Origin: Kiloniellales bacterium
Lineage (GTDB): Bacteria > Pseudomonadota > Alphaproteobacteria > Kiloniellales > JAKSBE01
Length of the DNA stretch: 57,611 nt
Direction of reading: 5' to 3'
NCBI GenBank assembly: GCA_022361275.1
Contig: JAKSBE010000589.1
Span: forward strand, 1-57,611
A program made the position numbers and the translations under genes. The notes beneath the pieces were generated by a model. The model was not told the DNA's origin, searched no databases, and saw nothing but the letters and a program-made list of their open reading frames with translations. Shown piece after piece: positions 39,251 to 56,610 of this stretch (its first letter is position 1; each line of letters begins with the position of its first letter).

Positions 39251-40276
39251 TCAGGGGCTGCTGCCCTCGATTTCCCGAAGGCTTTCCCGATAGCGCATCG
39301 TCTGTGCGCCGCCCAGTGCAACCGCCTGTTGCGCCGCCGAGATCGCTTCCGAGCGCCGGCCTAACGCCTTGAGCGCATAGGCCAGATTGTTCCAGGCGGC
39401 CGCAGCGTCGGGACGCAGTTCGATCGCTTTCCGATAGGCGGCTTCCGCCCCTGAGGCGTTCCCCGCGGCATAGCGTGTGTTTCCCAGGCCCATCAGGGCG
39501 ACATGGCTTTCCGGCCAGCGGCCCAGCAGCGTCGCGTAGGCGGTTTCCGCTTCCACCAGGCGCCCCGCCCGCTCGAGACCGGCGGCCCCCGCGACCACGT
39601 CTCTTCGATTCGCCGTCGCCGGAAGCCGATCGGGCGCCAGCACCGCGAGCGCCCAGAAGTCACCCCGACGCCAGGTCCGCTCGAAAGTCGCCAGGGCGAC
39701 GCGGCGCCTGGCCTCGGTCCCCGAATGGAGGGTGATGGTGCCGGCCGGAAGGTCATAGCCGATCGCGACGGCGAAGTGCCACTGCGGCAGGAGATCGAGG
39801 CCGAGGTTCTGGAAGACCAGGACCGGATGGCCGGCGGCGAGCTCGGCCAGCAAGGCGTCCAGCCGCCTCACTTCGACCGCCAAGCGGCCGTTGCGGCGCG
39901 TCCCGCCCAGGATGTCGCTTCGCAGGGTACCTTCGCGTCCCGGCGTGTAGACCTGGGACACCAGATCCTCCGCGGTCACCGGCAGGCCGGACCAGGCCAG
40001 CACCATGGCCAGGGCCGCCGGGCCGCAGTAGTAGCGCTCCTGCGGAAAGAAGGGCACCTCCGCGATCGCCACCCGTGGCGGCAGCCCGCCCGGCTGCTCC
40101 AGCAGCCGTTCCGTCTGGGTCGCTGCGCAGGCCGCAAGCCCCAAAGCCAGGACCAGGCTGGCCAGGCGGCCCGCCTGCCGGCAAAGCCGGACGCCACGGG
40201 CCGGTCTTGCGCGCGCGGGCCGCGGGCCTCGTCGAGCCCGCGCCCGTCTCGGGATCGGAACCTGGTCCAGGAGCAT
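39251..40276 (-). CDS. PA2778-family C39-like cysteine peptidase lipoprotein with TPR repeats
   Basis: Lipobox LAAC; VPFFPQERYYCGPAALAM, WHFAVAIGYD; C-terminal TPR AAAWNNLAYAL. Confidence 0.82.
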   Translation of the reverse strand: MLLDQVPIPRRARARRGPRPARARPARGVRLCRQAGRLASLVLALGLAACAATQTERLLEQPGGLPPRVAIAEVPFFPQERYYCGPAALAMVLAWSGLPVTAEDLVSQVYTPGREGTLRSDILGGTRRNGRLAVEVRRLDALLAELAAGHPVLVFQNLGLDLLPQWHFAVAIGYDLPAGTITLHSGTEARRRVALATFERTWRRGDFWALAVLAPDRLPATANRRDVVAGAAGLERAGRLVEAETAYATLLGRWPESHVALMGLGNTRYAAGNASGAEAAYRKAIELRPDAAAAWNNLAYALKALGRRSEAISAAQQAVALGGAQTMRYRESLREIEGSSP

Positions 40277-40371: not shown

Positions 40372-40791
40372 TCAGGTTCCGCCGAGCGAATCGATGAAGG
40401 GAAAGACGTCGGTCACGCCGAGCAGGTCCGTGATGATCAGAATCAGGAAGATAATCAGAATCGTCGCAACCAGAAACACCACGACGCCTTGGCCCGCCGG
40501 ATCCTGGTCCATCCGATCGACGATCGTCGCGATCTCGGCGTCGGAGAGGCTCTGCACGCGCCGTGCCGCCTCGTCCGGGTTCACCCCCAGGCTCGTGATC
40601 TGCTGTCTTACGTCCTCCCGGGCGAGAAAGGCGAGCACGCGTTCCCGGTCGGCCTCGGCCTGGCTTTCGGCCAGAACCTGATCGGTCGTGACCAGCGCGG
40701 CCTGAGAGACGTTGACCGGCAGGGAAACGAAGAGAACGACCAGGGCCAAAGGCATCGCCAAAGCCCGGCAGAAACGATCGAAGAAGGTCAT
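40372..40791 (-). CDS. PA2779-family protein
   Basis: Signal peptide; FLAREDVRQQ..LGVNPDEA..RV.SLSDAEI; C-terminal hydrophobic ITDLLGVTDVFPF. Confidence 0.8.
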   Translation of the reverse strand: MTFFDRFCRALAMPLALVVLFVSLPVNVSQAALVTTDQVLAESQAEADRERVLAFLAREDVRQQITSLGVNPDEAARRVQSLSDAEIATIVDRMDQDPAGQGVVVFLVATILIIFLILIITDLLGVTDVFPFIDSLGGT

Positions 40792-40980: not shown

Positions 40981-42888
40981 TCACTGTGGCGCCGCGGCGG
41001 CGAGATCGTCGACCTGGTTCAAGAGTTTGCCGTAATCCGGTGAATCTTCAGCGGCATAGTTGAAGTTCTTGAACAAGCCTATGAGCTTGGTGAAGTAGGC
41101 GCGGGCCGCCTCCTTGTCGGCGAAGCCGTAGCTCCGGGTCACCAGGTCGTAGACCTTGTTGAAGGCCAGCTTCTGGCGTTCCAAGGGCGCCGAGGCGTCG
41201 ACCGAATCGAAGGCGTCCTGCTGCAGGTAGACCATGTCCAGGAAGAGCGCCTTCTGCTGGATCACGAAATCCTCGGTCGTGATGCCCTCCTCGCCGGTCA
41301 CCTGCATCATCTGCGACACACCCTCGCCCTTGTGCAGGAGAGCCTGCATCTCTTCGACCCGCCTGGTCCAACCGACGTCGACGTTCTGATCGAACCAGGG
41401 CTCCAGCTGCTTCAGGTAGCGGGACCAGGAGATGAGCGGATCGACCGCCGGGTAGAAGCGCTTGTAGGCGCGGTCGTAGGACAGGCCGAGGAAGTCCTTG
41501 ACCGTCGACAGGGTCGCCTGGGTCACCGGCTCGTCGAAGTTGCCGCCGGCCGGCGAGACGGTGCCGATCATGGTCAGGCTGCCCACCGAGCCGTCGTTGG
41601 TCTTGAGCACGCCCGCCCGCTCGTAGACGCTCTTGATTGAGGATTCGAGATAGGCCGGAAAGCCTTCCTCACCCGGGATCTCCTCGAGCCGCCCCGAGGT
41701 CTCGCGCATGGCCTGCGCCCAGCGGGACGTGGAGTCGGCGATCATCAGAACGTCGAAACCCATTTGCCGGTAGTACTCGCCGATGGTCAGCCCGGTGTAG
41801 ATCGAGGCCTCGCGGGCCGCGACCGGCATCGAGGAGGTGTTGCAGATGATGATGGTGCGGTCCATCAGAGAGCCGCCGGTGCGCGGATCCTTCATCTGGG
41901 GGAACTCGTTGATCGTCTCCACCACCTCGCCGGCCCGCTCGCCGCAAGCCACCACGATGACCACGTCGACCGCCGAGTGGCGCGAGATCATGTTCTGCAG
42001 CACCGTCTTGCCGGCGCCGAAGGGCCCCGGAATGCAGGCCGTGCCGCCGCGCGCCACGGGAAAGAAGGTGTCGATGATACGCTGGGTGGTGACCAAGGGC
42101 TCGTCGGGGTAGAGCCGCTCGGACCTGCGGCTCTGCACCAGTCTGGAGTCGACCGCGCGGCGCACCGGCCATTTCTGCGCCAGACGGATATCCTGTGCGC
42201 GCCCCGCCTTGTCCTCGACCTGGGCGACCGTGTCGCTGACGGTGAAGGTCCCTTCCTGGATCCAGGAGACCTTGAGCTCGCCCGCCCAGCCGAAGGGCAC
42301 CATGATCTTGTGCTTGTAGCGGCCTTCCTGGACGGTGCCGAGGGTGTCGCCCGCAGCGACCGTGGCCCCCTCCTTGACCGTCGGCACAAAGGACCATTTG
42401 TTCTTGGGATCCAGGGGCGCCGCGGTGACGCCGCGCGGCAGGAAGATCCCGTAGCGCGAGGCCAGGTCGTGCAGAGGATTCTGCAGGCCGTCGTAGACCT
42501 GGCCGAGAAGCCCCGGCCCCAGCTCGACGGCCAGCATCTCCCCGCTCTGCTCGACCGCGTCCCCGACGGCGACACCGGCGGTGTCCTCGTAGACCTGCGC
42601 ATCGGCGGTCCGTCCGCGAACCCGCAGAACCTCGGCCTTCAGCTTCTCCGGCTCGCCCAGCTCGTTGGTCCGATCGGGGCAGAGGAAGACCACCTCGTTC
42701 TTGATGAGGGGCGCCGGCTTCCCATCGAGGCCGTCCAAGGCCTCGATCTCGACAAGGTCGTCCTGGACCGCAACGACGCGCGCCGTCGCCTTCAGATTTC
42801 CCTTGGCCGGCTTGCGGGCCGCTTTGCGCGGCCTCGCCGACCTTCCGCCATCGGCGCCGGGGGGCCCTGGCTTGTCGTCACCCGCCAT
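40981..42888 (-). CDS. ntpA: V/A-type ATPase subunit A
   Basis: GPFGAGKT, CGERAGE, NTSSMPVAAREAS, ADSTSRWAQA, SPAGGNFDEPVTQ. Confidence 0.95.
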   Translation of the reverse strand: MAGDDKPGPPGADGGRSARPRKAARKPAKGNLKATARVVAVQDDLVEIEALDGLDGKPAPLIKNEVVFLCPDRTNELGEPEKLKAEVLRVRGRTADAQVYEDTAGVAVGDAVEQSGEMLAVELGPGLLGQVYDGLQNPLHDLASRYGIFLPRGVTAAPLDPKNKWSFVPTVKEGATVAAGDTLGTVQEGRYKHKIMVPFGWAGELKVSWIQEGTFTVSDTVAQVEDKAGRAQDIRLAQKWPVRRAVDSRLVQSRRSERLYPDEPLVTTQRIIDTFFPVARGGTACIPGPFGAGKTVLQNMISRHSAVDVVIVVACGERAGEVVETINEFPQMKDPRTGGSLMDRTIIICNTSSMPVAAREASIYTGLTIGEYYRQMGFDVLMIADSTSRWAQAMRETSGRLEEIPGEEGFPAYLESSIKSVYERAGVLKTNDGSVGSLTMIGTVSPAGGNFDEPVTQATLSTVKDFLGLSYDRAYKRFYPAVDPLISWSRYLKQLEPWFDQNVDVGWTRRVEEMQALLHKGEGVSQMMQVTGEEGITTEDFVIQQKALFLDMVYLQQDAFDSVDASAPLERQKLAFNKVYDLVTRSYGFADKEAARAYFTKLIGLFKNFNYAAEDSPDYGKLLNQVDDLAAAAPQ

Positions 42889-43583
42889 CAGGTTCGTCCT
42901 TCGCCGAAGAGGTCCGCATAGTCGCCGAGCCCGTCCTCGGTCAGCCGATCGAAGCGTTCGGCCGCCTGCTCGCCGTGGTAGCGGCCCCAGCGATCGACGA
43001 TGTTCCACTTGAGCACATAGACGACCACGGCCTCGAAATCGTACTGATGCGCGCCTTTGCGGCGGTTCGCGCTCTTCCAGGCCTGCTGCAGGATCAGCCG
43101 CTGCAGCGACAGGGTTTCGCCCTCCTGCAACAGCTCATCCGCTTCGCGCAGCCAGGGAAAGACCGCGTCCAGGCGAAAGCGCGCCTCGGTCCAGTTGCGC
43201 GCGATGTGCCGCGTCCAGCGGCCGAAGCCCCAGTCGGCCCCGGAGGCCGGGGCCGGCTCGCCGCGATGGCGCCGGCGCAGGGCCGCCACGCAGGTGCGGA
43301 TCTCGAGCCGGTCGCGAATCAGCAGGCGGACGGTCTCGTTGTCGATCTCCCGCACCGCGCGCCGCGCCCGCGCGACGACCTCCGCATCGGTGGTGGCGAG
43401 CGGGATATCGCCCCAGTGCAGGACCATCTCGGTCAGTCCGAGCGCCCGCGCGTGCCCGGGCGCGAGGACGCGCAGGCGGCGGTCGAGCTTAAGGCGGGAG
43501 AGCGGCGGCCGCTTCGCGAGGAAGAGCGCCTCGGGACTGGGCAGGCTCGACATCAGCATGACGTAGACGTTGGGATCGCTCAT
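42888..43583 (-). CDS. DUF2764-like V-ATPase-associated subunit (putative subunit C)
   Basis: Y.MLMSSLP N-terminus, YDFEAVVVYVLKWNIVDRW; lies between E and A with a TGATG overlap. Confidence 0.72.
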   Translation of the reverse strand: MSDPNVYVMLMSSLPSPEALFLAKRPPLSRLKLDRRLRVLAPGHARALGLTEMVLHWGDIPLATTDAEVVARARRAVREIDNETVRLLIRDRLEIRTCVAALRRRHRGEPAPASGADWGFGRWTRHIARNWTEARFRLDAVFPWLREADELLQEGETLSLQRLILQQAWKSANRRKGAHQYDFEAVVVYVLKWNIVDRWGRYHGEQAAERFDRLTEDGLGDYADLFGEGRT

Positions 43584-43600
43584 CGGCTTGCGGCCCGCCG

Positions 43601-44296
43601 CTACTTCACGATGCCTTCGAGCACGGCGCGGAACCTTGGCTGCAGGTGCTGCAGCAGCAAGGCCGCGACCGCCTCGTCGGTGAGGTCGATCGCGATCTCG
43701 CCCTCGACCACGCGGATCCGGACCCCGGAACCGGCCTCCTCGAAGGCCGAGAAGGTCACGCCTTCGCGCAGCATCTCGTCGGTCAGCCCCAGGACGTAGC
43801 GGGTCGCCGCGCCTTTCTGAAGCTCCGCCGGGTTCTTGCGCAGCTCCTCCAGCCCGGCGGCCTTCTCCGGCAGAATGACGTCGACGTCGCCGGCCTCGTC
43901 GAGCGCGGTATCCCGGCGCACACGGCCGACCAGTTCCAGGATCATCTGCTTGAGGGTCTCCTCCTTGCCGAGTTCCTCCGAGGCCAGCCGCTTGACGTCC
44001 GCGCTGAAGCGCTGCATCAGGCGCGACTTCATCTCGAGGATGGCGTCGCGCATCGCGGTCTTGACCGCCTCCTCGCCCGCGGACCGATAGGCGTCTCCTT
44101 CCTTCCGCGCGGCGGCCAGATGCGCCTTGGCCTCGGTTTTCGCCTTGTCGACGATCGCCTTGGACTTGGCGCGGGCCTCGGCGACGATCTTCCCGGCCTC
44201 GTCGCGGCCCGCCGAGACCCCCTCGTCCCGGAGCTTGGCGATCAGCGCGTCGACCCCGCTCGCGGGGGGCAGCTCCTGCTTCGCGGCCTTGGCCAT
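43601..44296 (-). CDS. ntpE: V/A-type ATPase subunit E
   Basis: SGVDALIAKLRDEGV, A/E/K coiled coil, IDLTDEAVAALL..L.PRFR. Confidence 0.85.
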   Translation of the reverse strand: MAKAAKQELPPASGVDALIAKLRDEGVSAGRDEAGKIVAEARAKSKAIVDKAKTEAKAHLAAARKEGDAYRSAGEEAVKTAMRDAILEMKSRLMQRFSADVKRLASEELGKEETLKQMILELVGRVRRDTALDEAGDVDVILPEKAAGLEELRKNPAELQKGAATRYVLGLTDEMLREGVTFSAFEEAGSGVRIRVVEGEIAIDLTDEAVAALLLQHLQPRFRAVLEGIVK

Positions 44297-44754
44297 CAGG
44301 ACGCTCCTCCCGCCGGGATGCCGGCACTGATCACCAGCGCGAAGACGAAGGCGAAGACCGCGAAGCCCTCGATGATCGCGGCCGGCGCGATCGAGAGGCC
44401 GAAGATCTCGGGCTTCTCCTTGGCCGCATTGATCGCGTCCGCGCAGGAGCGGCCCTGGTAGATCCCCGCATAGAGAAAGGCGAGGCCGGCAAAGAAGCCG
44501 ATCCCGAAGAGGGCGCCGGCGTTCTCCGGCGTCACCTCGCGGTTGAGCGTGAACATCACGACGATCCCGTAGATCACGAAGGAGGATGGCAGTGCCGTCA
44601 GGCCGATGAAGCGGCCGTAGCCGCCTTCGGTCTCGAGCATCGCCCCGCAGGCCGCCGCCCCTGCGAGGGCGCAACCGATGGAGCTGCCGATCGCCCCGAT
44701 TGCCATCGGCGAGTAGATGCCGATCCATCCCAGCGCCACGACGAGTTCGTTCAC
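44296..44754 (-). CDS. ntpK: V/A-type ATPase proteolipid subunit K (four helices)
   Basis: GTG start 44754; GSSIG, LPSS..IYG, YQG, IIEGFAVFAFVF. Confidence 0.88.
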   Translation of the reverse strand: MNELVVALGWIGIYSPMAIGAIGSSIGCALAGAAACGAMLETEGGYGRFIGLTALPSSFVIYGIVVMFTLNREVTPENAGALFGIGFFAGLAFLYAGIYQGRSCADAINAAKEKPEIFGLSIAPAAIIEGFAVFAFVFALVISAGIPAGGAS

Positions 44755-46550
44755 GGTTGCACCTCCTTGCGGGCAAACCTCCGGAAGGGACTGCCCTCTC
44801 CCGGCATGCCCCACTTGTAGAATTCGATGAAATTGAGCCTGAGACCGTGGACCACGCCGCTCATGATCGCCAGGCCGAGATTGACGACGTGGCCGCCGGC
44901 CAGGATCAGGATCGCAAAGAGCAGGCCCAGACCCGGCGCGGCGTCCTTGGCCTGCATCGCCAGGTTGTTGAAGGTCAGCGCGAGCGAAGCGCTCGCGAGG
45001 CCCAGCGCGAAGAGGCGCATGTAGCTCAAGACGTCGCCGAAGGCGCCCATGATTCCCGTTAGGGCCTTGAAGCCGTCGAGCACCCGCCAGAGATAGTCGA
45101 CCGGGCGCTTCCCGACCGGGCGGTCGCTGGAGAAGAAGAAGATCGCCGCCACGCCGGCGCCGAGGACGTAGGGGCCGGCCTCGGCAGGAATGCTGCCGGG
45201 CGTGCCGTAGACCAGGAGCGTGGCGCCGAGCAGACCGGCGATCCAGCCCAGGTTCGCGATCGCGGTCGGGCTCCCGCGCTTGGTGTAGGCGACCACGGCA
45301 TTGCCCATCATCAGGTGGAGCACGCCGATGACGATCGAGAGCCGCATCATCGCCGGATAGTCGTGCAGGTCGAGCACCTGGAGGGCGCCGGGCAGCGAAT
45401 CCTGCGGCGGTGCGACACCGAAGTAGCTGCCGGCCATGATCCCGTAGGCCAGGGTACAGCCGAGCATGGACAGGCCGAGCAGGCGATAGGACCGGCCCCG
45501 CGGGCTCCGCCCCAGCCGCTTCCAATAGGCCAAGAGGCCGGCCAGCAGGACCGCGGCATAGCCGGCGTCCGCCACGATCATGGCGAAGAAGACCGAAAAG
45601 GAGAAGAACAGGACCACGCTGGGGTCCCACATGCGGTAGGGCGGGACCGTGTAGAACAGGGCCAGGTCGGCGCCGGCCGTCATCTCGGGCGTCTCTTCGA
45701 TCAAGGTCGGCGGCTGCTCTTCCGGCCTGGGGTCCTCCAGCAGGCAGGCGAGCCCCCTTCCCGCGGCGAAGGTCTCGACCTCGGGGATCGCATCCTCCGG
45801 GACCCAGCCCTGGACAGCGACGATGCCGTCCGCCTCGCGCACCTGCTGATCCGCGTAGGCGAGCGAAGCCAGGTTCTCGGCCTCGGCAAGGTTGACGCTC
45901 AGCAGGTAGATGTAGCGCGTCAGCGCCTGCCGCTGGGCGACGATGTCCTCGATCTCGACCTCGGTCTCTTCCAGGCGGTCCTTCAGCGCCTGAAGCGGCA
46001 GCGCGCCGGTGTGGGTCCGCGGCACCGGCAGGAGGTCGTCCGGGGGCTCCTCCTGAGCGATCACCACGACGTAGGTGAAGCGATAGTCCTTGCGCACGAT
46101 CTGCCAGGGCAGCGCGACCGTCCTGAGCGCGGCGGCCTTGCCCGACGGCAGGATATAGAACCACAAGCGGTAGCCGGAGAGATCGGCCTGCGGCGGAAAG
46201 GCGATGTCGCCCCAGGGCTCGACCTGGCCAATGCGATGCTCGAGGAAGTCCCGGCGGTCGGTCGCATCGCGCAGCCGGTCCTTCACGAGGCGCGCCTCTT
46301 CGACGACCCGTTCGACGTCGAACTTCGGATCCTTGGTGACCTGCTTGCGCTTCTCCGGCATGTCGGTCAGGAAGCGCAGGGCCTTGTAGGCCGCTTCGGC
46401 CCGGGGGCTTGCCACCTTCTCCACCTCGGCCGGCGCCGGCCGCAGCGGCAGGAGATGCATGCAGCCGAGCGCCTGCAAGCCCTTGAGAAGATCCTCCTTC
46501 TCGGTCAGGAGCCCGCAGACGGTGACCCGTTTGACCCTGGCGATGCTCAT
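44751..46550 (-). CDS. ntpI: V/A-type ATPase subunit I (a)
   Basis: QGWVP, PPTL, WDPS, FFAMIVADAGY, DVLSYMRLFALGLAS, VHGLRLNFIEF. Confidence 0.93.
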   Translation of the reverse strand: MSIARVKRVTVCGLLTEKEDLLKGLQALGCMHLLPLRPAPAEVEKVASPRAEAAYKALRFLTDMPEKRKQVTKDPKFDVERVVEEARLVKDRLRDATDRRDFLEHRIGQVEPWGDIAFPPQADLSGYRLWFYILPSGKAAALRTVALPWQIVRKDYRFTYVVVIAQEEPPDDLLPVPRTHTGALPLQALKDRLEETEVEIEDIVAQRQALTRYIYLLSVNLAEAENLASLAYADQQVREADGIVAVQGWVPEDAIPEVETFAAGRGLACLLEDPRPEEQPPTLIEETPEMTAGADLALFYTVPPYRMWDPSVVLFFSFSVFFAMIVADAGYAAVLLAGLLAYWKRLGRSPRGRSYRLLGLSMLGCTLAYGIMAGSYFGVAPPQDSLPGALQVLDLHDYPAMMRLSIVIGVLHLMMGNAVVAYTKRGSPTAIANLGWIAGLLGATLLVYGTPGSIPAEAGPYVLGAGVAAIFFFSSDRPVGKRPVDYLWRVLDGFKALTGIMGAFGDVLSYMRLFALGLASASLALTFNNLAMQAKDAAPGLGLLFAILILAGGHVVNLGLAIMSGVVHGLRLNFIEFYKWGMPGEGSPFRRFARKEVQP

Positions 46551-47152
46551 GCGGACCCCGCCGCGGCGTGCTTCTTCTTGGCGATCTTGGAGCGCACGAC
46601 GGCCGCCGTCTCCATGTCCGACAGGTAGATCTGGATCCGCTTGATCTTGCTCTGAGCCTCGGGGATCAGAACCTTGTCGAAAAGGTTGACGCGTTGGGTG
46701 ACCGTCTTGATCGCCTGCTCCAGCAGCGCGACCCGGCGCGCCTCGACCTGCGCCCGAATGCGCAGCTCGAGCATCTCGCGCAAGATCTCCGCCGTGCGAT
46801 CGACCCAAGGCGGCCGGCCCAGGTAGGCGTAGGGACGCAGCTCCACCTCGATGTCCTCGAGCCTCGGCAGATGCGTGCCGACCACGTTCTCGGTCCCGAT
46901 CCTGACCCCGGCGAGCCTTGCCAGGCCGGTCAGATCGACCTCGCCGAGGGCGAGCATCGGCAGCTTACCGCGAACCGCCTCGCGGCGCCTCTCCATTTCG
47001 CGCCGGGTGTCGGCGAGCGCCCGTTCCGCCTTGGCCCGCTCCGCCATCACCTGCCGGCGCTTGAGGTCGAGCGAGGGCAGAAAGCGCTGATAGGTCCTGA
47101 GGCTCTTCTGCTCGCGGGCGAGCGCGGACTTACTGAGCTGCAGCTTCGCCAT
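46547..47152 (-). CDS. ntpD: V/A-type ATPase subunit D
   Basis: RFLPSLDLKR, TQRVNLFDKVLIP. Confidence 0.92.
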   Translation of the reverse strand: MAKLQLSKSALAREQKSLRTYQRFLPSLDLKRRQVMAERAKAERALADTRREMERRREAVRGKLPMLALGEVDLTGLARLAGVRIGTENVVGTHLPRLEDIEVELRPYAYLGRPPWVDRTAEILREMLELRIRAQVEARRVALLEQAIKTVTQRVNLFDKVLIPEAQSKIKRIQIYLSDMETAAVVRSKIAKKKHAAAGSA

Positions 47153-48551
47153 GGCGCCCTCTCCGCTCCTCCGGCTCGCTTCCGGCCTCGACCGCCTCCG
47201 CCGGCGGGGCGAGCTCCTTCGGGAAGTACTTGTCGATCAGGCCCTGCTTCATCAGGAGCTGCTCGGGCCGGAAGCACTCGGCCAAGGTCCGCCAGCCCAG
47301 ATCCAGCGCATCTTCGAGCGGCAGCGAGACCTCGAGGTTCATGAAGCGCTCGCGGAACAGCCGGTTGAACTTCAGGAGCTGATGGTCGTAGTCCGAGAGG
47401 TCGAAGGCCATGGCCTGCTTCTGCGCGGCGTCCTGTCCCTCGGAGTAGAAGCGGATCATGGTGTTCATGATCTGGCCGTGATCCTCGCGGGTCACCTTGC
47501 CGATGACGTTCTGCTTGAGGCGCGAGAGCGACCCGAAGGGATCGATGACGCCGCTGTGCAAATAGAACTGTCCCTCGGTGATGTAGCCGGTGTTGTCCGG
47601 TACCGGATGGGTCACGTCGTTGCCCGGCATGGTCGTCACGGTCAGGATCGTGACCGAGCCGCCCTTGGCGTAGTCGCAGGCCTTCTCGTAGCGGCGCGCA
47701 AGCTGGGAGTAGAGATCGCCCATGTAGCCGCGGTTCGAGGGCACCCGCTCCATGGAGATGCCGATCTCCTTCAGCGCGTCGGCATAGGCGGTCATGTCGG
47801 TCAGCAGGACCAGAACCCGCTTGCCCTCCTCCACCGCGAAGCGCTCGGCCACCGCCAGGGCCATGTCCGGCACGAGCAGACGCTCGACGATCGGGTCCGA
47901 GGCCTGGTTGACGAACATGACCGTGCGCGAGAACACGCCGGCGTCCTCGAAGGTCTTCCGGAAGGTGTAGTAGTCGTCGAAGATCAGACCCAGGCCGCCG
48001 AAGACCACGATGTCGGCGTCCGCCTGGATGCCGATCCGCGCCAGGAAGGGATTGTAGGGTTCGCCGGAGACCGAGAAGATCGGGATCTTCTGGCTTTCGA
48101 CCAGGCAGTTGAAGACGTCGATCATCGGCACGTCGGTGCGGATCATCTTGGTCGGCACGACCCGCTCGACCGGGTTCACCGAGGGCCCGCCGATGTCGAC
48201 CTTCGGGTCCATGGAGAGGTCGGGGCCCGAGTCCATGGGCTCCCCGGCCCCCGAGAAGACGCGGCCGAGGATGTTCGGGGAATAGGTCGTCTGCATGGGA
48301 TGGCCGAGGAAGGTCACGGTCGCGCCGGTCGAGACGCCCTTGGTTCCGGTGAAGATCTGCAGCGACACCCTGTCGCGGGCGATGTTGATGACCTGGGCCA
48401 GGGACTTTCGGCCGTCAGCCTCCTCGATGACGGCGAGATCCTTGAGACGGACGACGGCTTCCTCACCCGCCGCCGGTTCGGGCACCTGGACCTGCAGGAT
48501 GTCGCCGACGATCGAGAGAATTCTCGAATAACGCACCAGCTCGCGCGTCAT
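47130..48551 (-). CDS. ntpB: V/A-type ATPase subunit B
   Basis: SQKIPIFS, LTDMTAYADAL, RGYMGDLYS, THPVPDNTGYITEGQ, PFGSLSRL; ATG 48551. Confidence 0.94.
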   Translation of the reverse strand: MTRELVRYSRILSIVGDILQVQVPEPAAGEEAVVRLKDLAVIEEADGRKSLAQVINIARDRVSLQIFTGTKGVSTGATVTFLGHPMQTTYSPNILGRVFSGAGEPMDSGPDLSMDPKVDIGGPSVNPVERVVPTKMIRTDVPMIDVFNCLVESQKIPIFSVSGEPYNPFLARIGIQADADIVVFGGLGLIFDDYYTFRKTFEDAGVFSRTVMFVNQASDPIVERLLVPDMALAVAERFAVEEGKRVLVLLTDMTAYADALKEIGISMERVPSNRGYMGDLYSQLARRYEKACDYAKGGSVTILTVTTMPGNDVTHPVPDNTGYITEGQFYLHSGVIDPFGSLSRLKQNVIGKVTREDHGQIMNTMIRFYSEGQDAAQKQAMAFDLSDYDHQLLKFNRLFRERFMNLEVSLPLEDALDLGWRTLAECFRPEQLLMKQGLIDKYFPKELAPPAEAVEAGSEPEERRGRHGEAAAQ

Positions 48552-48651
48552 GCCCGCCGTCTCCCTGCTGCCTGAGCGCCCGCGCGTCCCTTGTACGCGA
48601 TCACCCTCTCTGCGTGCTCGTTTTTCGCCCGGTCTGATACGCGGCCAGGCA

Positions 48652-49590
48652 TCAGGCCGGGCGATGGAACTCGATCCCCTTCGCAGCACCGCTGATGGTC
48701 GTCCCGGCCTCGCCTTCCAGTATAGCCGGAAGGTCGGCCAGCGCACCGATGGCGGCCGCCTTGCCGCTTCGCTCGGCGAACTGGCAAGCGGCCGCGACCT
48801 TCGGGCCCATGGAACCGGCGGCGAACTCGTAGGTCTGCAGGGCGGCCGGCGAGGCTCGCTTGATCCCCCGTGCCTCGGGCTTGCCCCAGTCGAGATAGAC
48901 CGCGTCGGCATCGGTCGCCATGATGAAGAGATCGGCGTCGAGGTCGCGCGCCAGCAGCTCGCTCGCGAGATCCTTGTCGATCACCGCCTCGACGCCGCGC
49001 AGCTTGCCGTCTTCGTCGTAGACCGTCGGGATGCCGCCGCCCCCGGCGCAGATCACGATGGTGTTGCTCTCCATGAGCCACTTGATCGGGCGGATCTCGA
49101 AGATCCGCCTGGGCAAGGGCGAGGGCACCACCCGGCGCCACTTGTCCCCGTCCTGCCTGATCGACCAGCCCTTCTCCGCCGCGAGCCGGCGGGCCTCCGC
49201 CTCGTCGTAGACGGGCCCGATGAACTTGGTCGGGTTTTGGAAAGCCGGGTCCCCGGGGTCGACCTCGATCATCGTCAAGACGGTCGCGAAGGGCACCTCG
49301 AAGGGCAGCAGGTTGCCCATCTCCTGCTCGATCATGTAGCCGATCATGCCCTCGGTCTCGGCCCCCAAAACGTCCAGGGGATAGGTCTCCTCCGGCTTGT
49401 AGGCCGCGCCCTGAAGGGCGAGCAGCCCGACCTGGGGGCCGTTGCCGTGGGAGATGACGAGCTGATGTTCCCCGGCGATCGGCGCCATGGCCCCGGCGGC
49501 GATCCGGACGTTCTCGCGCTGGTTCTCCGCGGTCAGGGCCTGGCCGCGGCGCAGCAGGGCATTGCCGCCAAGGGCGACGACGACACGCAT
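48652..49590 (-). CDS. arcC: Carbamate kinase
   Basis: [46 protein letters not shown]. Confidence 0.96.
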
Positions 49591-49593
49591 GGC

Positions 49594-50595
49594 TCAGCTC
49601 CCGATCGTCGCGACGAGCACCGCCTTGATGGTGTGCATCCGGTTCTCCGCCTGCTCGAACTGGATCCCGGCCGGGGATTCGAAGACCTCGTCGGTCACCT
49701 CCATCTCGGCGATCCCGAACTTCTCGTACATCTCCTCGCCGACCTTGGTCTCGCGGTTGTGGAAGGCCGGCAGGCAGTGCATGAACTTGGTGTTCGGCAG
49801 CCCGCTCGCCGCCATCAGCTCCTTGGTGACCTGGTAGGGCTTCAGCAGCTCGATCCGTTGCGCCCAGACCTCGGCGGGCTCGCCCATCGAGACCCAGACG
49901 TCGGTGTGGATGAAGTCGGCGCCCTTGACCGCCTCCCGGGGGTCCTCGGTGACGGTGAGACGCGCGCCGTAGGTCTCGGCGAGCGCGCGCGCCGGGCCCA
50001 GGTACTCGTCGCTCGGCCAGTTCGCCTTGGGCGCCGCGAGCCGCACGTCCATGCCCAGGATGCAGCCGACGATCATCAGGGAATGGCCCATGTTGCTGCG
50101 CGCGTCGCCGACGAAGGCATAGGCGATGTCGTGCAGCGGCTTGTCGGCATGCTCGCGCATGGTCAGGACGTCGGCGAGCATCTGGGTCGGATGGAACTCG
50201 TCGGTCAGCCCGTTGAAGACCGGAACGCCGGCGTAGGCCGCCAGCTCCTCGACGACCGCCTGACCGAAGCCGCGGTACTCGATGGCGTCGTACATGCGGC
50301 CCAGGACGCGTGCGGTGTCCTTCATCGACTCCTTGTGGCCGATCTGGGAGCCCGAGGGCCCGAGGTAGGTCACCCCGGCGCCCTGATCCATGGCCGCCAC
50401 CTCGAAGGCGCACATCGTCCGGGTCGAGGTCTTCTCGAAGATCAGGCAGATGTTCTTGCCCCGCAGGTGCTGCTGCTCCGTCCCGGCGTACTTGGCCCGC
50501 TTCAGGTCCCGGGACAGGTCGAGCAGGTAACGCAGCTCGCGCTGGTCGAAGTCCATCACCTTGAGGAAACTGCGTCCCTTCAGATTGAATGCCAT
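49594..50595 (-). CDS. arcB: Ornithine carbamoyltransferase (catabolic by context)
   Basis: [31 protein letters not shown]. Confidence 0.95.
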
Positions 50596-50717
50596 CGTCC
50601 TTTTCCTCCCTTGTCTGGCCGCCCGGCCAGTTCGTGAACGCTACGGCCTGCGACGGCTTTCCGCTATCCGATTCAGGCAAGCCGCCGCCGGCCGACGATG
50701 TCGGGCAATCCGTCGGC

Positions 50718-50837
50718 CTAGTGTCCCTTTGATTCTGAAATTCGCGAGAGCGAATTGCAGAATCAAAGGGACACTAACTCGTTGAGTCTCGTGTGATTCA
50801 GCTTCCAAATCTCGGCACATGAAATGTGCTGCTCTAG
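50718..50837. repeat. CTAG-bounded double-hairpin element, copy 2 (right end differs)
   Basis: Matches 13397..13529 over ~105 bp; terminal CTAG contains the arcA stop. Confidence 0.8.
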
Positions 50838-52066
50838 TCCTCGACCGGATCGCGCAGGATCGGGCAGGTCATGCAGTGACCGCCGCCGCGGCCCCGGCCC
50901 AGCTCGTTGCCGGCGATGGTGACGACCTCGATGCCGGCCTTGCGGAGCAGGGTGTTGGTGTAGGTGTTGCGCTCGTAGGCCACGACCACGCCCGGCTCCA
51001 GGGCGACCACGTTGTTACCGTCGTCCCACTGCTCGCGCTCCGCCTCGTAGGCATCGCCGCCGGTGTGCACCGTCCGCAGCTTCTTGATGCCGAGAGCCTC
51101 GGCGACCACCGTCGGGAAGTCCCTGGTCTCCTCCACGACCGAGATCTCGCCCTCCTTGTCCCCGGGCCGCAGCGAGAAAGGCCGGATCGTGTTGACGACA
51201 TCCGGGAACATGTTGACCACGTCGCGGTCGCAGAAGGTGAAGACCGTGTCCAGGTGCATGGCGGCCCGCTCCTTGGGCATGGCGGCCGCGATGATGCGCT
51301 CGGCGCCGCCCTTCGCGAAGAGGCTGCGCGCGACCTGGCCGACCGCCTGCGGCGTGGTGCGCTCGCCCATCCCGATCAGGACGGTCCCCTTGCCGACCGG
51401 CATGACGTCGCCGCCTTCGACATGCGCCATGCCGTGGTCGGTCTCGACGTCGTCGCCCCACCAGAACTCGAAGTCCGCGTCCTTGAACATCGGATGGAAC
51501 TTGTAGATCGCCGCCGTGTTGAGCGTCTCCGCCCGGCGCGCCGGCCAGAACATGGGGTGAAGCGTCACGCCGCCGTAGATCCAGGCCGAGGGGTCGCGCG
51601 TGAAGAGCTGGTTCGGAAGGGGCGCCAGGACGAAGTCCTGCGGCTCGAGCAGCGCCGCGAGCATGCCCTTGGGCTCGAAGGGCAGCTCCGCCCGGCTGAT
51701 CCCGCCGACCAGATGGACCGAGAGCTGGTAGGCTTCCATCTCCATCAGACAGTCGTGCAGGTCCTGCGCCATACCCAGGCCCACGATGTTCTCGGAGATC
51801 CTGAGCTTCAGCAGCCATGCGCGCGCCGCCGGGTCCTTGACCGTCTCTTCGAGCAGCTCGCGGAAGTGATAGACCTCGATCCCGCGATGGCGCATCTCGT
51901 CGACGAAGGCCAGGTGCTCCTGGCGTGCCTGCTTGACCCAAAGGACATCGTCGAAGAGCAGTTCGTGGCAGTTCGTCGGCGTGAGCCGCGCGATCGCCAG
52001 TCCCGGGCGGTGGACGATGACCTTCCTCAGCTTGCCGATCTCGGAATGCACTCCCAGGGTCGTCAT
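50834..52066 (-). CDS. arcA: Arginine deiminase
   Basis: [42 protein letters not shown]; AGGAG RBS. Confidence 0.96.
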
Positions 52067-52208
52067 GTCGTTTCTCCTTGAATGACCACTGTCCTCGCGC
52101 TCGAGGCGCGCTGGCGCCGCCGCGCACACGCAACGCCCGAGCTTCCGAGCCGGCTGCTGTCGAGCGCGACGGCGAGCTGTGGGGCCTCGCACCGCATGCC
52201 CTTCCCTC

Positions 52209-53615
52209 CTACGACATCAGCGCGCCGACGCTGATCACGGCCATGATGATCACGGCCAGGATCACGAGCAGCGGGAACATGAAACGCAGCCAGCGTTCAT
52301 AGGGCACCCGCCCGAGGGCCAAGCCGCCCATCACCACGGCGAAGGTCGGGTTGATCAGGTTCACCAGGCCGCTCGCCGACTGATAGGCGGTCACCACGAG
52401 GTCGCGCTGGACTCCGGCGAAATCGGAGAGCGGCGCCATGATCGGCATGGTCAGCACGGCCAGACCCGAGGACGAGGGCACGAAGAAGGAGAGCGCCGCC
52501 TGCAGCCCGAACATCGCGTTGATGAAGGCGATCTCCGGCAGGCCGCTGACCGCGCCCTCGGCCCAGAACAGGATGGTGTCGGTCATCTTGCCGGCATCCA
52601 TGACGACGACGATGCCGCGCGCGATGCCGATCACCAGCGCGACGCCCAGAAGGTCGCGGGCGCCGTCGACGAAGGTGTTGGTGAAGTCCTCCTCGCTCAT
52701 GCGCGCGATCAGCCCGACCAGGATCGAAGCCACGATGAAGAGGGCCGACATCTTCGCCATCCACCAGCCACCGGCGGAGACGCCCCAGATCATGACCGCG
52801 AAGCTGCCGGCGAAGACCAAGAGGACGATCTTGCGCGTCAGAGTCAGCTCCATGTTGTCCGCCTCCTCGCGCCCCTTGAGGAAGTGCGCCTCGTTCTCGG
52901 CCCGCCGGTCCGCGACGATCGAGCGCTCAGGATCCTGGCGGACCCGTTCCGCGTAGCGCATCACGTAGGCTACGCAGGCGAGCCAGCAGAGGATCAGAAT
53001 GACGAAGCGCAGCAGGATCCCGTCGGTGAAGGGCACGCCGGCGGCGTTGGCCGCGATCACCGTGGCGAAGGGGTTGATGGTCGAGCCCAGGGTGCCGACG
53101 CCGGCCCCCAGCATGATGATCGCGACCCCGGTCACGGCGTCGTAGCGCGCCGCGATCATGACCGGGATGATCAGGGTGTAGAAGGCCAGCGATTCCTCGG
53201 CCATGCCGTAGATCGTGCCGCCCGCGGCAAAGAGCGCCATGAGGATCGGGATCATCCACTTTTCCCGCCCCGCCAGGCTGCGCATGGCGCCCCCGATGCC
53301 GGCGTCGATCGCGCCGGTCTTGGTCACGATGCCGAGGAACCCGCCGATCACCAGCACGAAGAGCGCGACGTCGATGGCCGCCGCCTCGTAGCTGTCGGGA
53401 TCGTAGAAGCCGGCGATGGGCGCGAGCACCACGTCGACGAAGCCTTGCGGGTTCGGCTCGACCTCCTTGTAGGTCCCGGGGACCGGCACCTCCCGGCCCA
53501 GGGCCTCGTTCATCGCGCGGTCGTACTCGCCCGCGGGCACGAACCAAGTCGCGATGGCGACCGCGATGATGAGGCCGAACAGGATCGTATATGCACTCGG
53601 AAACTTCAGCTTCAT
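52209..53615 (-). CDS. YfcC-family basic amino acid antiporter (probable arginine/ornithine)
   Basis: [36 protein letters not shown]; directly upstream of arcA. Confidence 0.87.
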
Positions 53616-53858
53616 GGTGTCACGCTTCCCCTGCGTTTCCTCGCCGAAACCGCCGGAACTCGCCGGCATGGCCCCGGCGCTCTTCGGGCCTGAGCGAGAT
53701 CTCTCCACGGAGTCGCTCCGGATGGGTCGTCATGTAAGGGAGAGCCAAGGCGGACGGACGGCCCCTTCCCGCTCCAGCCGACACCGTCCCGGTCTCCCAC
53801 CGCGTTTGCCCCTCCCCGGGCAATGACGTTCGGCACGTCGGTCGGTCGCTCCGCAGAG

Positions 53859-54116
53859 CTAAGGCTGAGGCGCCTGTCCGGGAGCCCTTTCCTTGCCCGC
53901 CGCGCCGTCCTTGCCGGCTATGCCGTCCCCGGCCGCCTCGTCTTCGCCGGCCTCGCCCTGCAGGCGAAAGATCACCAGCTCCCCCTGCTCGCCGGTCAGA
54001 ATCCCGGGGCCGGGCGGGATCTCGCGGCGGGCATGGGACTTCGTTCCCGGCTTTATCTCGACGCCGGCGCAAGCGACCAAGAGGACGCAGGCGAGACCTG
54101 CCGCCAGGGCCCGCAT
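53859..54116 (-). CDS. Small hypothetical lipoprotein
   Basis: MRALAAGLACVLLVAC lipobox; RREIPPGPGILTGEQGELVI; TGATG coupling to the porin. Confidence 0.68.
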   Translation of the reverse strand: MRALAAGLACVLLVACAGVEIKPGTKSHARREIPPGPGILTGEQGELVIFRLQGEAGEDEAAGDGIAGKDGAAGKERAPGQAPQP

Positions 54117-55468
54117 CAGAACTTGATCCGCGTGCCGACCGTGCCGACGACGATTTCGTCGACGCTGTTGGCGTTGTCGCGGTCGAGGTCGAAGAAGCGG
54201 ATCTGGGCGTAGAGCTCGGTCCCGAAGCCCTCGATCAGCTGGACCGCGGCAAGCCCGACGGAGACGCCCTCGTCCCCCTCGTCGGAGACGTTCTCGCCGT
54301 AGGTGTAGTCGACGCCGAAGCCGGTCGCTCCGAACTGGAAGATCGACGTATCCCAACCCAGCTTGCCGTAGAGGTTGTAAGGGTCGTCGCCCCGGTTCCT
54401 CGAGTCCATGCCGCCCGAGAGCGTCAGGCTGAGGCCGGTCGGGTTGTGCAAGGCCGAGAAGGAGCCGGCGAGACGCCAGCGCACGTTGTCGGCGTTCGGC
54501 TCCTGGAGCGACAGCGCGCCGAGGGTGGTCACGTCGCCGATGTCGACGCCGGTCCAGTCGCCATAGTCGCCGCCCCAGGTCAGCGCCGCGTCGTAGCGCT
54601 GATCCGAGCCGGCCGAGACGGCGAGCTGGACGCCCGGCTCCAGGACCGGCGAGTCGTAGCGCACCCGGTCCTGCCGGTTGCCGTCGAAATTGAAGAAGGC
54701 GTCGCCGACCGAGACGCCGGTCCGATCGCCGTCATCGATGAACTCGAGTCCCCCGACGATGTCGCTCACGCCCGAGTACATGATCGGTCCGGCGACCAGC
54801 GACAGGTCGTACTCGGCCGTGTCGTCCGCGGCTGCGGAGCCCTTGCCGAAGAGCAGCCGTCCATAACGGTCGTTGCGGGCCGAGCCTTCGACCTTGCGCA
54901 GGTCGATGAAGTCGTCGGCCTGCTCGTTGTCCTGGCTGACATCGAAGGAGTTGTTGGGGCTGAAGGCGACCTCGACCGTCGTGCCCAGGGTGGTCTCCTG
55001 GGTGACCCGCCCCGTGCCGACAAAGCGGACCCGCGAGTTCGAGACGTCGTTGTCGACGAAGTAGGCTCTGGTCTTCTCCCCGTCGTCGGCGACGTTCACG
55101 GCCCGGTTCAGTTGTCCCGAGATGGCGAGCTTGATCTTCTCCTGGCCTGAGGTGATGACCCTGTCCGGCAGCCGGCCGGCGCTGGTCTTCTCCGCGGTGT
55201 CGATGGCTTTCTCGGCGGTCGACTGGGCCTCGGTCGCGATGGTCTCGGTCTGGGTCGCTTTCTGTTCGAGCTGGTCGACCCTGGACCTCAGCGCCTCGAT
55301 CGTCTCGGCCTGCGCACCGAGTTGCTCCTGCTGTCGCTGGATGATCTGCTGCAGCTCCTGCAGCAGCACGGCATCTACAGCCACCGTCTCGGCCCTCGCC
55401 GGCGTCGACGGGACCGCCTGTACCATCAGCGCTAGAAAACCCGCGCAGAGCCATGTTCTGGTCGACAT
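54116..55468 (-). CDS. Outer-membrane porin with an N-terminal coiled coil
   Basis: Signal peptide, Q/E coiled coil, beta-strand body (ISGQLNRA, SRVRFVG, RVRYDSP), terminal Phe. Confidence 0.82.
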   Translation of the reverse strand: MSTRTWLCAGFLALMVQAVPSTPARAETVAVDAVLLQELQQIIQRQQEQLGAQAETIEALRSRVDQLEQKATQTETIATEAQSTAEKAIDTAEKTSAGRLPDRVITSGQEKIKLAISGQLNRAVNVADDGEKTRAYFVDNDVSNSRVRFVGTGRVTQETTLGTTVEVAFSPNNSFDVSQDNEQADDFIDLRKVEGSARNDRYGRLLFGKGSAAADDTAEYDLSLVAGPIMYSGVSDIVGGLEFIDDGDRTGVSVGDAFFNFDGNRQDRVRYDSPVLEPGVQLAVSAGSDQRYDAALTWGGDYGDWTGVDIGDVTTLGALSLQEPNADNVRWRLAGSFSALHNPTGLSLTLSGGMDSRNRGDDPYNLYGKLGWDTSIFQFGATGFGVDYTYGENVSDEGDEGVSVGLAAVQLIEGFGTELYAQIRFFDLDRDNANSVDEIVVGTVGTRIKF

Positions 55469-55749
55469 CGTCGCTTTCCTCTCTCCTCTCGCGCATCCGG
55501 GAACAGGATGCCGGATCGTCCGCCACCTGCGGCCGGCCGAAGTACGGCGGCCGCGCTCGATCGAGGCAAAAGCTACTGCGCGTCCCACCCTCGGCTATCA
55601 CCGGACAACCGGCCAAGCCCGCCTCTGCAACTCGAACGGGAAAGCCTCGCGATCAGGATAGGGTGAATGGGACTCCGAAAGCCGTCATAACCTGCAATCC
55701 ATGCAGATGCCTCCCTCCCCTTTTTGTTACGCCAGGCGGCGGGGAACAC

Positions 55750-55763
55750 ATGATCTGGATCAA
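55750..55763 (-). promoter_or_regulatory. FNR/FixK/ANR-like box
   Basis: Minus strand TTGAT-CCAG-ATCAT, 9/10 to TTGAT-N4-ATCAA, ~280 bp upstream of the porin. Confidence 0.6.
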
Positions 55764-56141
55764 TTCCTGCTCAGTTAGCCTCGATCGCACGAGAGGATTC
55801 GGTCGCTTTTGCACAGATGAAGCGCCTTGCCTGCCTTCGGCCGAAGGCAGGCTGCTCTTGGGGCTCAAAAAGCTTAGGGCTGGTATCGAGCAGGCGCTAT
55901 CCGATTCGCGCAGCGCGGTCAGGACCGAACCCGCCTCCGAACCGGACCTGAGGCGCGACACGCATGAAAGCTCGTGCTCGAGGACCACCTTCGGCGCTTC
56001 GCCTGGCGCGGGGAACTGAGCATGGACCGGGCGACCGAGAGCGGCGGCGGCTCGACGAAGGCGCCGACGTGAGTGGTTCGAGCTTCGCGGTCCGCCGCCC
56101 TGCCGAGCGCACGACGGCATCCGCGCCGGCCGAGGTCTCCC

Positions 56142-56417
56142 TCAAGCCCTGAAGCTCTCGTAGAGGGTCCAGCAGCCGATGAGGATGAAGCCGAGGCCGG
56201 CGGTGAGCTTGATCGACTCGGGCGGCAGGGTGCGCAAGGCAACCGACCCGAGCCAGACCGCGAGAGCCGTCGAAATCGCGAGAGCCGCGAGGGCCGCCAG
56301 GAAGACGAGCACCGGATGGCTTTCCTTGTTCGCCGCGAACATCGCGGTCGCGAGCTGGGTTTTGTCCCCGAGTTCCGCGAGAAAGACGATCAGGAAAATC
56401 GGAAGGATTTGCTGCAT
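56142..56417 (-). CDS. TMEM165/GDT1 (UPF0016) family half-size transporter
   Basis: FLAELGDKTQLAT motif; three hydrophobic helices; 91 aa. Confidence 0.87.
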   Translation of the reverse strand: MQQILPIFLIVFLAELGDKTQLATAMFAANKESHPVLVFLAALAALAISTALAVWLGSVALRTLPPESIKLTAGLGFILIGCWTLYESFRA

Positions 56418-56492
56418 GTGTCGCCTCGCTTGGGAGCCGGCCGGACGCTATGGCGACACGGCGACCCAGCTCCCTCAAGCCGACCGTGCTCG

Positions 56493-56610
56493 CCATAGGT
56501 CTCGCCAAGCCTTTCGGGCCACACGCGCCATGGTCTACCTCAGGATCCGGCAGAACCAAGCCTGTTGACGCGCATCCTTCTCGAAGCGGAAGGCGGCTAC
56601 TCCCCTACGG
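56493..56610 (-). ncRNA. yybP-ykoY manganese riboswitch
   Basis: Minus strand ccgtagGGGAGTAGC...CGTCAACA...CCATGGCG...GGCGAGACCtatgg with closing stem; upstream of a GDT1-family gene. Confidence 0.82.

Follow-up and report, generated by a model that had tools for sequence, protein, structure and literature searches.

Arginine deiminase genes joined to a seven-gene V-type ATPase operon in alphaproteobacteria: a probable mobile energy module

Why should the genes for the fermentative breakdown of arginine stand directly in front of those for a second rotary ATPase? The question is raised by a stretch of 57,611 nucleotides (hereafter the window), which makes up contig C247 in full; the contig belongs to the metagenome-assembled genome (MAG) of a Kiloniellales bacterium (5.95 Mb in 615 contigs, 99.7% complete and 9.3% contaminated). 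On its minus strand, from position 55468 down to 40981, 13 genes follow one another in the order porin, lipoprotein, YfcC/ArcE-type exchanger, arcA, arcB, arcC, ntpB, ntpD, ntpI, ntpK, ntpE, a subunit C/d-like gene and ntpA, that is, arginine deiminase (ADI) genes followed by a V-type ATPase operon. A sequence-only reading of this DNA had proposed this gene content and order, and all 13 genes were found as it gave them, with a weak family signal for ntpE (Table 1). The same reading had suggested that ATP from the ADI pathway feeds a dedicated pump, an idea that is consistent with the recurrence of the join in other genomes, the matching trees of the two gene sets, the overlaps at their border and the joins of related gene strings to N-type ATPase and acetate kinase genes.

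With moderate confidence, we interpret the locus as a conserved, horizontally mobile energy module that combines arginine uptake, ATP formation by the ADI pathway and a V-type pump. The porin, the lipoprotein and the ArcE/YfcC-type arginine/ornithine exchanger would take in arginine, which ArcA, ArcB and ArcC would convert to ornithine, CO2 and ammonia with the formation of one ATP by carbamate kinase. The seven-gene V-type ATPase, encoded directly downstream, would hydrolyse this ATP and expel ions, probably H+, and such pumping would keep the membrane energised when respiration cannot. Inferred in this account are that the enzyme works as a pump and not as a synthase, which ion it moves and what triggers it, be it anoxia, arginine or some other stress. 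The components are known, and what is new is that ADI genes are linked to a V-type ATPase at the level of the operon, an arrangement of which no description was found in the literature searched, supplements and subscription journals aside.

A synteny search showed that the adjacency, whose restriction to this one assembly the sequence-only reading had considered, recurs in other genomes and is real in several alphaproteobacterial orders. In an order-level sample of 61 genomes, 13 of which carry this V-ATPase, ADI genes lay directly upstream of ntpB in three of the 12 V-ATPase-bearing relatives (G001, G002 and G007), namely both same-genus genomes and one genome of another family. A public sample, with one genome per species, yielded at least 520 NtpB relatives; the best 80 loci were examined, 75 of them with more than 1.5 kb of upstream sequence, and arcC was directly upstream of ntpB in 15 of these best 80. 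Fourteen of the 15 belong to alphaproteobacterial taxa of at least three orders, and the linked taxa comprise Kiloniellales, Rhodospirillales, Rhodovibrionaceae, Inquilinaceae, Algihabitans, Denitrobaculum, Tepidamorphaceae and Rhodobacterales (Tateyamaria, Aestuariivita and a Sulfitobacter MAG). Two of the 15 loci are decayed or partial: Tateyamaria sp. syn59 has a carbamate-kinase-like gene only, and Pelagibius litoralis DSM 21314 (L029, 8157-9922) keeps most of arcC but has yfcC and arcB only as fragments, arcA not being found in the locus.

The border between the two gene sets is tight in most of these genomes, with an arcC-ntpB gap of 20-200 nt in 15 of the 19 linked loci and an overlap of the two genes in L038 (ATGA) and in Tateyamaria omphalii (L059, 11 nt). 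Other arrangements exist. In L026 the porin and lipoprotein genes are found between arcC and ntpB, and in L025/L111 (G037) a distance of 1.6 kb separates ntpA from ADI genes that follow it on the same strand, with two Proton_antipo_M (Mrp/Nuo-type) subunit genes upstream of ntpB. Two further loci have additional material between arcC and ntpB: a gene for a UPF0114-family membrane protein in L030 (3038-3646; Pfam 93.7 bits), and a gap of about 860 nt with an open frame of about 236 residues in L016.

Regarding the window itself, the earlier description of a 100-bp spacer without a visible terminator was borne out by both the length and a terminator scan of 17 kb, which returned eight sites against 7.3 expected from shuffles, none of them in the arcC-ntpB spacer. 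Independent Logan contigs, from related strains in two other studies, span the junction (X3 record 10, 8544 nt; X1 record 4, 719 nt), so that the join cannot be put down to misassembly. The minimum free energy of the spacer was no better than that of shuffled sequences (z = +0.88; 165 of 200 shuffles folded at least as well). A conserved RNA structure in the spacer was considered on the strength of five covarying pairs with changes on both sides, but it was set aside because three sequences are too few. An Rfam search of the module leaders and spacers gave nothing, its two microRNA rows being chance matches on hairpins. Further upstream, the arcA-arcB spacer contains an insertion that is not present in L014 and that the X3 contig skips, passing from 50687 to 50834; this insertion, with its long perfect inverted repeat, may be a miniature mobile element.

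Trees of the two gene sets agreed with each other. The tree of NtpA, NtpB and NtpI was built from the 54 of 93 loci where all three proteins were single unbroken matches of sufficient length, and it placed the ADI-linked operons in two sister subclades of one well-supported clade, with ADI-less operons (Ruegeria, Jannaschia, Alteromonadaceae and others) interspersed among the linked ones. The tree of ArcB and ArcC comprised 28 clusters (L029 and L055 were not part of it, and L031 was dropped, its arcC match being split). All 17 V-linked clusters, together with the unlinked G034, formed a single clade in it (SH-aLRT 100), and the two subclades and inner pairs of this clade were the same as in the ATPase tree. 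The shared groupings include Denitrobaculum nested with Tateyamaria, L026 with L032, and the window with L014, L015 and L016. The matching subclades argue that the block was inherited and transferred as a unit. The ADI part would then have been repeatedly lost, or the ATPase part would have escaped, from a co-inherited block; both trees were quick searches with no outgroup, and the order of gains and losses is not readable from them.

As regards the deiminase, ArcA is only 59-62% identical to that of the window in L016, L027 and L105, where ArcB is 87-90% identical, and it is 83-93% identical in other loci (L014, L015, L026 and L032). These identities suggest that the deiminase gene was exchanged on its own, apart from arcB and arcC.

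The V-type enzyme is not the only rotary ATPase found behind ADI genes. The 61 genomes contain 16 ArcA genes; five of these ADI clusters adjoin the V-ATPase (four upstream of it and that of G037 downstream), and in three of the 16 (G020, G038 and G053) arcC is followed, after 28-135 nt, by the beta gene of an alternate F1Fo ATPase (N-type). The best NCBIfam match of this beta subunit reached 884 in G038, against a cut-off of 752, and was just under it in the other two loci (693 and 716), each of which has an alternate alpha subunit gene about 3 kb further on. Nor is carbamate kinase the only kinase found there. In L074, from an uncultured Caulobacterales MAG, an acetate kinase gene (5432-6667) overlaps the start of ntpB and has a DUF3141 protein gene (3040-5334; 691.8 bits) before it; with it, substrate-level kinases of two kinds are known beside this V-ATPase. 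An acetate kinase gene was also detected directly before yfcC-arcABC-ntp in L027 (3992-5185) and L105 (3993-5186), with a histidine kinase/response regulator pair upstream of it in both.

What use would a cell have for a second rotary enzyme? The genome of the window encodes one F-type enzyme, with a gene for the zeta inhibitor (PF07345, 146 bits), and no N-type ATPase operon was found in it. According to the accessible text of three reports, the Paracoccus F1Fo enzyme hydrolyses ATP far more slowly than it synthesises it, with or without zeta (PMC5795051, PMC8039183, PMC10469736), and the title of the last indicates that the inhibitory strength of zeta varies among alphaproteobacteria (PMC10469736). 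A separate pump would be needed, we infer, because the alphaproteobacterial F1Fo is a poor ATPase and a zeta inhibitor is encoded here. A wider proposal, which we regard as tentative and somewhat less probable than its opposite, concerns both the seven-gene V-type and the N-type enzyme of aerobic marine alphaproteobacteria: these second rotary ATPases would be dedicated ATP-driven ion pumps tied to substrate-level phosphorylation (ADI or acetate kinase), since a zeta-locked, nearly unidirectional F1Fo cannot reverse to energise the membrane once respiration has ceased. On this view the ADI/V-ATPase block would be a transferable "anoxic survival cassette".

Several points weigh against the interpretation of the locus as an energy module. 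The ADI-V-ATPase link is facultative: among the 75 public V-ATPase loci with sufficient sequence upstream, 60 lack ADI genes in that position, the upstream genes sampled at V-only loci were varied (PDH E2, GH65, MatE, HlyD, PGM and GNAT), and eight of the 16 ADI clusters have no rotary ATPase within about 7-10 kb. As the V-linked ADI clusters form one clade, their carriers being kin, one or two ancient joins may lie behind most of the adjacencies counted. Given the 100-nt spacer and a conserved motif upstream of arcB, the string need not be one transcript. Lastly, the direction of a V/A-type enzyme is not readable from its sequence, the assigned ion specificity hinges on one substituted ligand, and a synthase role was proposed, in the part of the preprint available, for the related seven-gene enzyme of Bacteroides fragilis (bioRxiv 10.1101/2023.05.11.540287).

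An alternative is that the two gene sets are mere neighbours, co-acquired on one mobile segment and perhaps sharing a regulator, with a V-ATPase that is not a specific user of ADI-derived ATP. The V-ATPase operon is alone in most loci and occurs in many contexts, ADI is alone in 8 of 16 genomes, a single clade of V-linked ADI clusters requires few independent joins, and the Roseobacter-type module of Denitrobaculum indicates transfer of the whole block. We nevertheless consider this explanation unlikely, as the linkage lasted while NtpI diverged to about 50% identity and arcC overlaps ntpB in L038 and L059. Also against it speak the other architectures (in G037 the ADI genes come after ntpA, and in L026 the porin separates the two sets), the N-type ATPase after arcC in three further genomes and the acetate kinase within the strings of L074, L027 and L105.

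The trigger of the proposed energy module was sought in the upstream region, where the sequence-only reading had seen an FNR-like box heading one operon. This box has one mismatch to TTGAT-N4-ATCAA; the window contains two sites with at most one mismatch, against 0.28 expected, a number that 3 of 100 shuffles reach, and the box is unlikely to be a chance match at its position. That said, it is absent from the orthologous, diverged upstream regions of both same-genus genomes, L014 and L015 (0 of 2), and it is a motif about 130 nt upstream of the box that is conserved there, so that its standing as the head of the operon was not upheld. With a relaxed FNR/FixK-type pattern, 3 of the 19 ADI-linked loci (the window, L055 and L059) showed a site in front of the first gene of the module, and the boxes of both Tateyamaria loci (L055 and L059) are perfect FNR-type boxes, that of L059 standing 102 nt upstream of yfcC.

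The conserved motif, GAATCGGATAGCGC, is identical upstream of the porin gene in both same-genus genomes, with CCTA[AG]G 15 nt later, and its second copy is present with the same sequence, 77-78 nt upstream of arcB, in the genome of the window, L014 and L015. In its genus-wide form it reads GAATCGGATAGCG[CG], followed 15 nt later by C[CG]TA[AG]G, upstream of both porin and arcB in the three genomes. The whole 5.9-Mb genome has four sites with at most one mismatch, two of them in the module; the other two are about 760-800 nt from the next open frame and thus define no regulon. We regard the GAATCGGATAGCG motif as a candidate promoter or operator, and its conservation makes it more likely than the FNR-like box to be the control element of the genus. 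If the motif is a promoter, the FNR-like box would lie inside the 5' leader, and the copy upstream of arcB implies that the string may have at least two regulatory or promoter sites; of the possible units, arcB-arcC-ntp would be the likeliest to comprise the ATPase. Compared by eye with the sigma-54, EcfG (GGAAC-N16-CGTT), sigma-32 and ARG-box consensus sequences, the motif gave no consistent fit, the EcfG pattern being perfect solely in L014. The regulators encoded nearby differ by lineage, with an AraC-type gene in T. omphalii (L059) and the two-component pair in L027/L105.

This picture of the control region bears on the possibility that the module serves against acid stress or in pH homeostasis, and not in the supply of energy under anoxia, as ADI and the F-ATPase do in oral streptococci. 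ADI consumes protons and releases ammonia while the V-ATPase expels protons, and both would raise the cytoplasmic pH; furthermore, no conserved FNR-type box ties the module to oxygen, and the regulators beside it in L059 and in L027/L105 are an AraC-type protein and a two-component system, not an oxygen sensor. Still, the carriers are alphaproteobacteria of seawater and sediment, for which acid stress is not an obvious pressure, two Tateyamaria loci have perfect FNR-type boxes upstream of the module, and the acetate kinase in the same strings points to fermentation. A role in acid stress therefore appears improbable to us, and it would share the coupling of ATP to the pump with the energy module and differ from it in the trigger alone.

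The direction and the ion of the enzyme were approached through its proteolipid. Aligned to NtpK of Enterococcus hirae (2bl2), the window's NtpK has four helices and a single glutamate, in helix 4, and the alignment showed no carboxylate in the first hairpin where the two-helix subunit of Thermus has a glutamate. Four-helix proteolipids with one carboxylate have a low ion/ATP ratio and belong to known pumps (those of E. hirae and the eukaryotic V-ATPases). With one site for every four helices, few ions are moved per ATP, as in known pumps, which is why we take the V-type enzyme to be probably an ATP-driven pump, and probably one of H+. As to the ion, the Na+ ligands of the E. hirae subunit, which we take to be L61, T64, Q65, Q110 and E139 (2bl2), correspond to L, S, F, Q and E in the window; with T64 replaced by S and Q65 by F the Na+ set is incomplete, and the position of T140 is occupied by G. 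In 63 of 83 NtpK proteins of this family a hydrophobic residue occupies the Q65 position; 18 have Q there and 2 have N. The Na+-translocating V-ATPase of E. hirae (ntp operon) works as an ATP-driven pump beside an F-type enzyme. It resembles that of the window in its four-helix proteolipid with a single glutamate and differs in Q65 and T140, replaced here by F and G, in having more accessory subunits and in its gene order; we know of no link between the E. hirae enzyme and ADI.

That the V-type enzyme is instead an ATP synthase, or an Na+ pump for salt homeostasis placed beside ADI by a shared stress regulon, is very doubtful: the Thermus V/A-ATPase is a synthase, an Na+-driven synthase role was proposed for the B. 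fragilis seven-gene enzyme in the available part of that preprint (bioRxiv 10.1101/2023.05.11.540287), 18 of 83 NtpK of this family have Q at the Q65 position and the carriers are marine, but the window's NtpK has F and G at the Q65 and T140 positions, its four-helix, one-carboxylate proteolipid resembles known pumps and not the two-helix subunit of the Thermus synthase (6qum, 5gar), and ADI makes no ion gradient, ArcE exchange being electroneutral according to the text seen of PMC5300872.

Turning to the parts of the proposed module, the seven ATPase genes kept the order B-D-I-K-E-C-A in all 93 loci (the window and 92 related ones), and the V/A-specific domains are present (ATP-synt_ab_Xtn and ATP-synt_VA_C in subunit A; ATP-synt_VA_C in B). 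Subunit E gave no Pfam match, and its position was kept in every locus reaching that far. The following gene had no family match over threshold (DUF2764, PF10962, E = 0.052, 13.6 bits against a cut-off of 24.1), and its structure was therefore modelled with AlphaFold2 from a 31-sequence alignment (pLDDT 85.9). Among 48,161 chains compared with VIA-align, the best was subunit C of the Thermus V-ATPase (1r5z_A, Z 10.5, 201 aligned residues, root-mean-square deviation 4.8), a Z value that, being below about 13, may reflect an arrangement common in helical proteins; the second was subunit d of the rat V-ATPase (6vq6_d, Z 10.2), and the next row had 7.5. A Foldseek search of the model against the PDB gave no match at E <= 0.001. 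On the basis of the model, the protein looks like the subunit C/d socket between central stalk and ring.

A similarly reduced enzyme is described in the accessible part of a preprint on Bacteroides and Porphyromonas (bioRxiv 10.1101/2023.05.11.540287), with subunits A, B, D, E and I, a duplicated K, a DUF2764-like protein and no F or G. Its order, E-DUF2764-A-B-D-I-K, is a cyclic permutation of the one found here. The Na+ ligand set, incomplete in the window, is reported as complete in B. fragilis, and the enzyme of the window is the one joined to ADI genes; the same text gives the function of the B. fragilis enzyme as not known.

In the ADI part, arcA, arcB and arcC each exceeded the NCBIfam equivalog cut-off, and arcB is, judging by its family match, of the catabolic type. 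A second ornithine carbamoyltransferase (OTC), 58% identical to arcB, is encoded elsewhere in the genome (G000:C309:856-1848), where it adjoins the gene of the F1Fo zeta inhibitor (2058-2363), and may be the anabolic copy. The carrier was under the cut-off of the NCBIfam "putative basic amino acid antiporter YfcC" (312.9 bits; cut-off 500) and is probably, by family, an ArcE-type arginine/ornithine exchanger. Many versions of the module have an extra APC-family (ArcD-like) permease between yfcC and arcA that is absent from the window, as in L015, and gaps of about 1.4 kb are found in L016, L031, L035, L036, L042, L059 and L065; a family-3 solute-binding protein is encoded as well in the modules of L015 (2594-3511 and 5060-6457 for the two extra genes) and L016, and not in the window.

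The porin had just a sub-threshold Alanine_zipper match in Pfam, on its N-terminal coiled coil, and fell with Porin_4 clusters in the ESM Atlas (feature score 0.98, structure TM 0.71-0.74). It adjoins the module also in L014, L015, L026, L031, L042 and L059, and the lipoprotein, whose ATG has one base in common with the porin stop codon, was kept beside it in L014, L015, L026, L031 and L042. The gaps of the ADI part are 243, 142 and 241 nt, and the V-ATPase genes follow one another closely, overlapping or spaced by about 20 nt at most.

Table 1. Coordinates of the module and of its sequence elements, listed in order along the minus strand
Feature	Position	Strand	Evidence or remark
Conserved motif copy 1, GAATCGGATAGCGC	55894-55907	-	about 430 nt upstream of porin ATG; candidate promoter/operator
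FNR-like box, TTGATCCAGATCAT (TTGAT-CCAG-ATCAT)	55750-55763	-	one mismatch to TTGAT-N4-ATCAA; 282 nt upstream of porin ATG
Porin	54116-55468	-	outer-membrane, N-terminal coiled coil; ESM Atlas Porin_4
Lipoprotein, 85 residues	53859-54116	-	signal peptide ending ...LLVAC (lipobox)
YfcC/DcuC-family carrier	52209-53615	-	Pfam DcuC 417.7 bits
arcA, arginine deiminase	50834-52066	-	Pfam ADI 434.8 bits; TIGR01078 510.6 (cut-off 489.1); NF002381 584.5 (cut-off 414)
Long perfect inverted repeat	50717-50776	-	in insertion of about 146 nt, about 50687-50834, arcA-arcB spacer; spurious microRNA match marks the hairpin
Conserved motif copy 2, GAATCGGATAGCGG	50661-50674	-	77 nt upstream of arcB ATG, followed by CGTAGCGTT
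arcB, catabolic-type OTC	49594-50595	-	NF002470 548.9 bits (cut-off 545) and Pfam matches
arcC, carbamate kinase	48652-49590	-	TIGR00746 413.4 bits (cut-off 358.25); NF009008 504.4 bits, above cut-off
arcC-ntpB spacer, 100 nt	48552-48651	-	no terminator-like site
ntpB, subunit B	47130-48551	-	Pfam ATP-synt_ab, ATP-synt_VA_C, ATP-synt_ab_N
ntpD, central-stalk subunit D	46547-47152	-	Pfam ATP-synt_D 128.9 bits
ntpI, membrane stator subunit I/a	44751-46550	-	Pfam V_ATPase_I 43.2 bits; NCBIfam subunit I 205.9 bits, under cut-off
ntpK, four-helix proteolipid, one carboxylate (E129)	44296-44754	-	ATP-synt_C 78.1 bits; NF007200 173.5 bits
ntpE, peripheral-stalk subunit E	43601-44293	-	NCBIfam V-type subunit E 84 bits against cut-off 241 (weak)
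Short subunit C/d-like protein, DUF2764-like	42888-43583	-	AlphaFold2 model and structural search
ntpA, catalytic subunit A, basic low-complexity N-terminal extension	40981-42888	-	Pfam ATP-synt_ab 226.7, ATP-synt_ab_Xtn 97.2 bits

On either side of the module the window contains other genes. Downstream of ntpA, behind a sigma-70-like site (40887-40859), genes on the minus strand encode a DUF6627 protein (40372-40791) and a C39-peptidase/TPR protein (39251-40276); they are beside the module in no related locus and are therefore not members of it. Upstream, a match to the manganese (yybP-ykoY) riboswitch (56434-56611, minus strand; 39.7 bits, gathering score 45, E = 8e-08) directly precedes a 91-residue GDT1/UPF0016 gene (56142-56417, minus strand; Pfam 77.6 bits), and by family the two look like a unit for Mn export, distinct from the module and immediately preceding it.

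Among characterised ADI systems, the arcDABC operon of Pseudomonas aeruginosa is ANR-dependent, has an FNR-type box upstream and has a proposed role in anaerobic survival; to our knowledge it contains no rotary ATPase. The same three enzymes are encoded in the window, where the exchanger belongs to the YfcC/ArcE family and not to ArcD, and where the FNR-like box, with its one mismatch, has no counterpart in the sister genomes. Closer in composition are the ArcE-type clusters, which combine arcA, arcB and arcC with a membrane exchanger other than ArcD; in the accessible text of Noens and Lolkema (2016, PMC5300872), arcE is present in four of seven alphaproteobacterial ADI clusters. The window adds to this arrangement a porin and a lipoprotein upstream and a whole V-type ATPase operon downstream, and the word "ATPase" has no occurrence in that text. 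Unlinked ADI and V-ATPase genes co-respond to ethanol in Thermoanaerobacter, according to the available part of another report (PMC3751872).

Bacterial seven-gene V-type and N-type ATPases are widespread, and their physiological role is unsettled. The join described here, recurrent, co-inherited and sometimes overlapping, leads to the hypothesis that fermentative ATP is spent to keep the membrane energised, which, if true, would give a physiological role to both classes of orphan rotary ATPase, and for which the cultured type strain Tateyamaria omphalii KCTC 12333 offers a test system. The hypothesis bears on the anoxic survival of strictly respiratory marine alphaproteobacteria in sediments, particles and hosts, and it may account for the retention of a second rotary enzyme in a class with an F1Fo that is a poor ATPase.

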